From positions 1-12,555 of IMG/VR virus record IMGVR_UViG_2606217107_000010: a stretch of 12,555 bases of DNA; one strand, given 5' to 3'. Of this stretch, positions 781 to 905 are shown one piece after another. The notes beneath the pieces were generated by a model. It made no database searches, was not told the origin of the DNA, and worked only from the letters and a program-made list of their open reading frames with translations. A program made the position numbers and the translations under genes. Position 1 is the first letter of the stretch. Every line of letters begins with the position of its first letter. The DNA comes from a virus (Duplodnaviria > Heunggongvirae > Uroviricota > Caudoviricetes).

Positions 781-905
781 ATGTTAACTGCTGCCTGGTT
801 AACATTTGCTGAAAAAGCCTGTTAACATTTTTTCCGCACAACAAACTGAATAATAAAGATAAAAACCGCAAAAATGCCTGGGCAGCCAGTTAACATGTTA
901 ACTGG
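781..905. repeat. cluster of GTTAACAT / ATGTTAAC repeats, including a perfect 16-bp palindrome AGTTAACATGTTAACT (888..903); putative terminase-recognition (cos-proximal) or operator-like sites
   Basis: GTTAAC hexamers at 783, 798, 821, 889 and 897. Inverted pair CAAATGTTAAC (778..788) and GTTAACATTTG (798..808). Located in the non-coding gap between the HNH gene and the small terminase gene, where HK97-like phages carry cos. Confidence 0.4.

Follow-up and report, generated by a model that had tools for sequence, protein, structure and literature searches.

Organisation of the locus

The window, that is, the whole stretch of 12,555 nucleotides (nt) analysed here (positions 1 to 12,555 of the IMG/VR virus record IMGVR_UViG_2606217107_000010), includes a lambdoid late region. 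Its minus strand carries, one after the other, a gene for an HNH endonuclease, the small-terminase gene terS and the beginning of the large-terminase gene terL, and the 290-nt gap between the first two holds an array of five GTTAAC repeats (Table 1). Comparison of related sequences suggests, with a probability of roughly three in four, that these repeats are a cosB-like array of recognition sites for the phage's own small terminase subunit, TerS. This reading follows from the position of the repeats on the packaged side of the cos cut, the conservation of the site positions in relatives, the covariation of the motif with a helix of TerS, and the fold class of TerS.

Table 1. Features of the packaging region; signed positions count from the first packaged base next to the cos cut.
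Feature	Position	Strand	Details and basis
terL, 5' end	1..146	minus	ATG 146..144, ATGA overlap with the terS stop; leaves the window, with only 48 codons inside it
terS, 187 aa	143..706	minus	GTG start; Pfam PF03592, E=1.3e-8, residues 2-57
terS leader	707..776	minus	Shine-Dalgarno sequence GGGAGGAGG; sequence reading
Sites 4 and 5	777..809		perfect 12-nt inverted repeat, GCAAATGTTAAC (777-788)-N9-GTTAACATTTGC (798-809); GTTAAC at +133 and +148
Site 3	821..828	minus	AAAAAATGTTAACA; GTTAAC at +110
AT-rich, T-tract-rich spacer between proximal and distal sites	829..884	minus	direct reading of the sequence
Sites 1 and 2	885..906		perfect 22-bp palindrome GCCAGTTAACATGTTAACTGGC; GTTAAC at +34 (902..897) and +42 (894..889)
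cos-proximal box	907..935	minus	CTCACGCAGAGAAAAAATTCCCGTTTCAG (+1..+29), with an A6 tract at +12..+17 (924..919); conservation
Putative 10-nt 3' cohesive end (cosN equivalent)	936..945	minus	CGCGCCCCCT; homology to Lys8385Vzw
G9 run	980..988	minus	nine C on the plus strand; -45..-53 from the cut
HNH endonuclease gene, 121 aa	997..1362	minus	Pfam PF01844, E=4.8e-7; HNH/homing endonuclease annotation in related phages

The five copies of GTTAAC (783-788, 798-803, 821-826, 889-894 and 897-902) all extend to the 8-mer GTTAACAT/ATGTTAAC, and they make up five of the eight copies in the whole window. About 0.03 copies are expected per 128 nt, which gives a Poisson probability of ca. 3e-10 for five or more, and in 2000 shuffles of the window five clustered copies were never reached. 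The initial annotation of this DNA had reported five such cores within about 120 bp, with an inverted pair at 778..808 and a 16-bp palindrome at 888..903. All of this holds, the pair being a perfect inverted repeat with a 9-nt spacer and the palindrome sitting inside a longer one of 22 bp. The placement between the HNH and small-terminase genes also stands, with the correction that both flanking genes are on the minus strand.

Relatives were compared in two main groups. The close family comprises 106 distinct upstream sequences with a terS that is 78-98% identical to that of the window. A more distant group, here called class D (85 distinct sequences; loci L244-L270 and L329-L408), was retrieved from many Enterobacterales with an alignment of TerS homologues, after a single-protein search of genome contigs had returned nothing.

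Position of the cos cut

The phage Lys8385Vzw (MT225100) was classed by PhageTerm as a cos phage, its 3' cohesive ends reported as CGCCCCCCCT, located where the genome ends (PMC7946995). Its record ends in GGACACCGCCCCCCCT and begins with CTCACGCAGAGAAAAAATTCCC (longer, CTCACGCAGAGAAAAAATTCCCGTTTCAGGGCAGTTAACATGTTAACTGG), and these termini align to window positions 951..936 and from 935 downward, with 98.4% identity over 246 nt; the minus strand of the window reads GGACACCGCGCCCCCT up to this junction and CTCACGCAGAGAAAAAATTCCCGTTTCAGGCCAGTTAACATGTTAACTGG after it. Because the termini align there, the cohesive 10-mer, which has its homologue in the window, can be placed at 945..936, and the first packaged base (+1 of the left end) would be position 935. 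Counted from this base, the cores begin at +34, +42, +110, +133 and +148, the sites span +34..+153, and terS starts at +230. Cleavage within 781-905, one of the roles first considered, is thus not what the homology to Lys8385Vzw indicates: the cut falls at 936-945, and the array lies between it and terS. This location on the packaged side, between the nick and the small-terminase gene, is that of a lambda-type cosB, and the array also resembles one in its repeats: a cosB has at least three copies of one repeat, some inverted, and the window has five of ATGTTAAC, with two per orientation and a palindromic pair. A G+C-rich 10-nt 3' overhang beside an HNH gene is what HK97 and SfI/SfV have. The defined 10-nt 3' cohesive ends of a near-identical relative speak against headful (pac) packaging. 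Besides Lys8385Vzw, no other isolated phage with record ends at this cos was found.

The cos-proximal box is nearly invariant in the close family and in class D, with few changes in the satellites described below, and its A6 tract is conserved in all classes. On the other side of the cut, the G-run varies in length from G7 to G11 in the close family, is an invariant GGGGGGG in class D, and is also found in the satellites; a role within the cos signal, perhaps cosQ-like, is conceivable. In the PPompW prophages (L425, LC567822.1), an ISEc20 element of the IS110 family is inserted at the G-run upstream of cos, equivalent to window position ~984. Here the HNH gene and lysis region are missing, tRNAs and Q follow directly, and these prophages are probably packaging-defective.

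The small terminase protein

AlphaFold2 predicts four helices for TerS residues 1-56 (predicted local distance difference test, pLDDT, 85-92), followed by a disordered linker at residues 58-109 (pLDDT <50) and then C-terminal helices. In Foldseek, the best match of the N-terminal domain is the SF6 TerS DNA-binding domain, 4zc3 (target-normalised TM 0.85, root mean square deviation 1.6 A, 30% identity, probability 1.00). The next structural matches are the TerS proteins of phages PaP3 and NV1, and weak sequence matches agree. The N-terminus is thus confidently modelled as a helix-turn-helix DNA-binding domain of the SF6/SPP1 type, and membership in PF03592 together with an N-terminal helix-turn-helix is what SPP1/SF6-type small terminases show. 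The protein does not belong with the Nu1 family, as it matches PF03592 only and has the SF6 fold. A dimeric helix-turn-helix protein, which had been suggested as the binder, is unlikely, since the matching SF6/SPP1 domain comes from a ring oligomer.

The start of terS is most consistently placed at the GTG at window position 706, because the N-terminus MLT(T/A)QKRKF is homologous across all relatives and that of the window, MLTTQKRKF, aligns with it. In some records (L003, which is MT225100, 185-793; P0001) the gene is annotated ~15 codons longer, from an in-frame CTG. The full terL of a 98.8%-identical relative (L002) matches PF03354 TerL_ATPase and PF20441 TerL_nuclease, and an HNH gene directly upstream of cos and terS together with a TerL of the PF03354 type is the arrangement of HK97-type modules.

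Conservation of the sites

All five cores are intact in 105 of the 106 close-family sequences, the exception having one core mutated. The polymorphisms in this family lie beside the cores (905, 820, 808), in the 10-mer (942, 937) and upstream of the cut. As examples, the core of site 3 is invariant in all 106 while its flanking base 820 varies between A and T, and of the long palindrome the core alone is kept across the family, position 905 being C in 20 and G in 30 of 50 distinct relatives. In one relative (L088) cos and the repeats are identical and divergence starts directly after site 5, so that the end of the repeats looks like a module boundary.

In class D the TerS proteins are 40-49% identical to that of the window, and only their N-terminal 55 residues are well conserved. 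The cos box is kept, and terS begins 40 nt past the cut, with the sequence TCTGGAGGGTGTAAAC ATG TTA ACA GCG. The palindrome of the window is homologous to this start, taken as the ancestral one, ATGTTAAC encoding Met-Leu-Thr (ATG-TTA-AC); in BLAST, the homology between the two groups runs from -32 to +47 and ends exactly at the palindrome end. The class-D pattern at +34/+42 is GT(T/A)AAC-RT-GTTAAC. The hexamer at +42 is GTTAAC in 80 of 85 sequences, and the non-coding one at +34 is (G/A)TAAAC in 78 and GTTAAC in three. The window family has lost the Shine-Dalgarno sequence at the palindrome, and its terS begins 190 nt downstream of there, with GTG-CTG-ACA. Because the palindrome has been retained although the start and the Shine-Dalgarno sequence have moved away from it, the comparison argues for selection on the DNA itself.

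Throughout the 170 distinct related loci a motif copy is placed at +33/+34, among them class D (Klebsiella, Enterobacter, Citrobacter, Erwinia and others), Hafnia and Morganella phages, and satellites of E. coli and Salmonella. All of these relatives have a second motif cluster 100-260 nt downstream, which is non-coding in the window and in one satellite (L326) and elsewhere lies in DNA coding for the TerS linker. In class D, the second cluster includes an inverted repeat, GTT(T/A)A(T/C)-N9-GTAAAC at +247/+262 in ~79 of 85 loci, within the variable linker; its start-to-start distance of 15 nt is also that of the window pair at +133/+148. It encodes N-V-Y-T-P-A-V-N (terS codons ~70-83, +247..+267), and the codons for these residues are nearly free of synonymous change (GTT 79/79, ACC 76/76, GTA 79/80, AAC 79/79). 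Linker-embedded copies are located at +247..+267 in class D, +232..+299 in the satellite L323 and +165..+205 in the terS of the Morganella phage L423, and the peptides at such copies form conserved islands or repeats (NVYTPAVN, KVT-KVT-KVT, EVNRRVNPEVNP). The terS of the window itself has four half-sites of the class-D type inside coding sequence (GTTTAT, GTAAAC, GTTTAC and ATAAAC, 483-568, +373..+453), among them GTTTAT-N5-GTAAAC at 563..547, which encodes AFIARKQ. These may be weak extra sites or a mere consequence of conserved coding.

Sites can also occur upstream of the cut. An extra GT[ATC]AAC is present at -42..-25 in 55 of 85 class-D loci, and the Morganella phage L423 has a cluster of GTTAAC/GGTTAAT at about -60..-110. 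The counterpart in the window (961-969) is degenerate, GTAAAAAAC, with GTAAAA at -36, and its strong sites lie only downstream of the cut. In the relatives, therefore, candidate sites can flank the cut on both sides, as pacL and pacR do in SPP1.

Covariation of repeat and helix

The repeat changes together with a short helix of the TerS N-terminal domain. Mean motif copies at +25..+450 were tallied in 170 distinct cos-to-terS regions. Those with the helix KTARVKGSQL (78 sequences, including an independent Morganella lineage) have 4.9 copies of GTTAAC and none of GTTACA, and those with KSARSKGSQL (76 sequences) have 3.6 copies of GTTTAY/RTAAAC. With KTARVKGWQL (seven sequences) there are 7.1 copies of GTTACA, and with KTARVKGCQL (two sequences) 4.5. 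The covariation is consistent throughout, with one convergent pairing, that of the window family and Morganella. The Morganella phage, with a helix identical to that of the window, has AGTTAACC three times in the linker, at intervals of 12 nt, and ATTAAC at +33. Two loci with KTARVKGCQL, one satellite-like and from Salmonella, the other from a Hafnia phage (HNH-terS-terL), have GTTACA both at +33 and in the linker.

The satellites extend this pattern. In E. coli, loci with two types of TerS homologue (P0063 and P0055) encode AlpA, a D5-type primase, terS and a capsid-family gene, and have no terL. The satellite loci (L323-L327 and L409-L418 in E. coli, L419-L420 in Salmonella) often adjoin an autotransporter gene of the AIDA/Ag43 type. 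They keep the cos box of the window type: L326 reads GGACACCGCGCCCCCT before the cut and CTCATGCAGAGAAAAAA after it, and then has GTTACA, not GTTAAC. L326 also has a comparable AT-rich spacer in the equivalent place and the same 14-mer as is found at site 3 of the window. The P0063 type has GTTACA at +33 and +45 and again five or six times in the terS linker; the two clusters hold seven of the eight or nine copies of the locus. The P0055 type has it at +33, +83, +123/+132 (inverted), +179 and +192, with terS at +229, which is nearly the same layout as in the window. The C-terminal half of the satellite TerS is 63% identical to that of the window (E=5e-31). The corresponding figure for the TerS of class-D phages is only 38%, over 48 aa. 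Relative to the window, both the TerS helix and the repeat have been swapped in the satellites, as would be expected if the repeats set packaging specificity. These elements are probably satellites of helpers of the Pankowvirus type that re-target packaging with their own TerS.

Across these sequences, a one-residue difference in the helix (KG-S/W/C-QL) may track a change of one to two bases in the repeat (GTTAAC, GTTTAY, GTTACA). It is tempting to see the whole family as a natural recognition code of TerS, with linker-embedded sites and satellite re-targeting as its corollaries, and we put this forward as a tentative idea whose chances are a little short of even. If it is true, the peptide repeats NVNTP/NVYTPAVN, KVT-KVT and EVNRRVNPEVNP would be by-products of DNA sites. 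Satellites resembling phage-inducible chromosomal islands (PICIs) may likewise hijack helpers of the BP-4795 or Shiga toxin (Stx) phage type, keeping the helper cos box and the half of TerS that faces TerL while swapping helix and repeats. This would be a cos-type counterpart of the TerS redirection known from Staphylococcus aureus pathogenicity islands (SaPIs).

Proposed mechanism and points against it

The proposed order of events starts from a late transcript and concatemeric DNA running HNH, cos, terS, terL along the minus strand. TerL and the HNH protein would nick at 936-945 and leave a 10-nt 3' overhang. The helix-turn-helix domains of oligomeric TerS would bind the proximal pair (+34/+42) and the distal cluster (+110 and +133/+148), all on the side packaged first, and this binding would anchor and orient TerL (and HNH) at the 10-mer and make initiation specific for phage DNA. 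The TerS binding itself, its stoichiometry or the wrapping of DNA on the oligomer, and a bending role of the AT-rich spacer are steps that we infer.

Several observations weigh against reading the repeats as TerS sites. Divergence in the close family is low, so the invariance of the cores is in itself weak evidence. In class D, ATG-TTA-AC is the coding start of terS, and coding therefore explains part of the conservation at +42. The class-D inverted repeat is the most constrained six-codon window in a synonymous test (0.21 against a mean of 0.56), yet about half of the permutations had a minimum that low, which is not significant. Sequences within each helix class are closely related, and the covariation amounts to roughly 4-6 independent lineages, not 170. 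The cos position depends on a single PhageTerm result, obtained in a relative and not in this element. Finally, in HK97, so far the sole phage of the HNH cos type with a structural study, TerS uses a single A-tract site and no repeats, and an A-tract is conserved here at +12..+17; by analogy, some of the recognition could lie there.

Competing explanations

It has to be asked whether the repeats could be non-functional remains of duplicated or displaced terS 5' ends, left behind after a new start arose ~190 nt downstream. The homology of the palindrome to the class-D start would fit, as would the stretch 805..770 (ATG at 805..803), which reads ATG TTA ACC AGG CAG CAG TTA ACA TTT GCG GCA TGA, or MLTRQQLTFAA and a stop, and is loosely like MLTTQKRKFALAL. 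Relics are expected to decay, however, and here the cores are invariant in all but one of the close family while neighbouring bases vary. In class D the non-coding half-site at +34 is conserved too, and satellites, Hafnia and Morganella are built in the same way, with different motifs that follow the TerS helix. The 178-nt leader shows no homology to class-D terS coding sequence beyond the motif (z -0.1 to 1.3 in four of five loci), and the single higher score (z 3.1) comes from 14 matching nt that include a motif-like GTTAA. This explanation is improbable, and the related idea that the leader is a decayed duplicate gene was left unsubstantiated by the same lack of homology. A link to HpaI restriction or modification (GTTAAC) was dropped as well, as the motifs that relatives have in these places, GTTTAY and GTTACA, are not palindromic.

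Operators typically contain palindromes and inverted repeats, and the initial annotation had allowed for an operator bound by a regulator. Here, the array would be an operator or promoter element at which a regulator of transcription, or a factor of the host, acts on terS/terL or on an antisense transcript. Two of the repeats do make up a sigma-70-like match, TTAACA-18-TAACAT with an upstream TG (799-828, plus strand), the sole promoter-like match in a scan of 600-1450, where no intrinsic terminators were found. No gene lies downstream of this match, which is antisense to terS, and we judge it incidental. There is no adjacent regulator gene: the neighbours form a late operon of the lambdoid type (holin, lysozyme, Rz, HNH, terS, terL), and such operons are normally read through from the late promoter. 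In relatives the motif lies inside terS coding sequence and covaries with TerS and no other gene, and the satellites share only cos and terS. No match to the integration host factor (IHF) consensus WATCAANNNNTTR with at most one mismatch was found in 700-1000, and Rfam at a permissive E-value gave no family. Control of transcription is thus a very unlikely role, and what the comparison supports of the earlier cos, terminase-binding or operator proposal is its terminase-binding part, in view of the packaged-side position, the fixed +33/+34 offset and the covariation with the recognition helix of TerS. The 22-bp palindrome could also be thought of as the cos nicking site (cosN) itself, situated as it is in the HNH-terS gap, and the partly symmetric 22-bp cosN of lambda is a precedent. 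Against this, the ends of Lys8385Vzw lie 30 bp upstream of the palindrome in a G+C-rich 10-mer, in agreement with HK97 and SfI/SfV, whose 3' overhangs also measure 10 nt, and a perfectly self-complementary overhang would presumably allow end-to-end mis-joining; we regard it as extremely unlikely. Equally little weight can be given to a small gene with incidental repeats. An open reading frame of 24 aa (896..822, minus strand), hydrophobic and starting from the ATG of the palindrome, MLTGCPGIFAVFIFIIQFVVRKKC, is intact in most family members, with seven synonymous and seven non-synonymous polymorphisms. It lacks a Shine-Dalgarno sequence, the GGAGGG of relatives being replaced by CAGGCCAG, its frame is broken in ~9 of 107 distinct sequences, and it covers only sites 2-3, which leaves the other copies and the pattern across lineages unexplained. 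It is probably not a gene.

Relation to known packaging systems

How a small terminase chooses viral DNA is unsettled, and lambda, SPP1 and HK97 each solve the problem differently. In lambda, cosB is arranged as R3-I1-R2-R1 and is bound by gpNu1. Like the array in the window, it lies between the nick and the small-terminase gene, on the packaged side of cosN, and consists of short repeats of which some are inverted. Each array covers ~120-150 bp, the terS start is ~190-230 nt from the nick in both, and a role in anchoring terminase and in packaging specificity is assumed for both. In contrast to lambda, the TerS of the window is of the PF03592 (SF6/SPP1) type and not a Nu1 homologue, the repeat sequence is unrelated, and the window has an AT-rich spacer only, with no IHF site found. 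The overhang is 12 nt and 5' in lambda, here most likely 10 nt and 3', with an HNH partner gene in addition. The array is functionally like lambda cosB but does not belong to it by homology, as its TerS is not Nu1-like and it has no IHF site.

The pac of SPP1 and SF6 has pacL and pacR boxes bound by G1P, in two separated places, one of them inside terS. The TerS family and the fold of the DNA-binding domain are the same as in the window. Sites inside terS, as in SPP1, are seen in class D, Hafnia, Morganella and the satellites, whereas the strong sites of the window are outside the gene. SPP1 is a headful packager, while the window family has defined cohesive ends and an HK97-like TerL with HNH. 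HK97 shares with the window the order HNH-cos-terS-terL and a PF03354 TerL. Its 3' overhang of 10 nt and its TerS site, which lies on the same side of the cut as terS, have putative counterparts in the window. Its TerS threads DNA through the ring and reads one 15-bp A-tract site at +15..+29 (PMC11331095), close to where the A-tract of the window is found (+12..+17). A helix-turn-helix of the SF6 type, as in the window TerS, is undescribed for the HK97 protein (PMC11331095), and five repeats over 120 bp stand against one site.

Redirection by a satellite-encoded TerS is known from SaPIs and from TerS-encoding PICIs of Gram-negative bacteria (PMC6092414). The satellites of E. coli and Salmonella likewise encode a TerS of their own, which is helper-like in its C-terminal half. 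The known SaPI TerS systems are of the pac type, whereas the related satellites here appear to join the helper cos box with their own TerS and repeats. EcCICFT073, the cos satellite of E. coli that has been characterised, lacks a TerS and relies on Rpp. In the searchable literature, no description of the packaging signal in Stx-type phages of the BP-4795/Pankowvirus kind was found beyond the cos end of Lys8385Vzw, and no paper containing GTTAACATGTTAAC. The array itself is an expected kind of element, with an unusually clear correspondence between protein and DNA motif. What is more novel belongs to the wider family: the proposed helix-to-repeat table, the candidate sites embedded in the linker, and the satellites that keep the cos box but swap both helix and repeat. 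Together, the comparative pattern supplies a defined cut, five sites at fixed offsets, and a set of TerS helix and repeat variants that includes satellites apparently re-targeting the same cutting machinery.

Distribution and neighbouring genes

Over the 500 nt around the array, 93 phage records match at 90-99% identity, nearly all of them long-tailed Stx-converting phages and related prophages of enterohaemorrhagic E. coli. Among them are BP-4795, 2851, 1717, YYZ-2008 and phi330 (genus Pankowvirus). In practical terms, the cut marks the true genome ends for many deposited records of Stx prophages, and hence the point at which the linear sequence should start.

Relative to late transcription, the HNH gene is immediately upstream of cos, and further upstream follow Rz, lysozyme, holin, a NanS-type esterase and a DNA methylase. 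HNH is separated from the lysis genes by a DUF3950 gene on the opposite strand (1404-1604, plus) and a small TonB_C-domain lipoprotein-like gene (1736-2077, minus). Both look like cargo genes, and both occur in Lys8385Vzw too.

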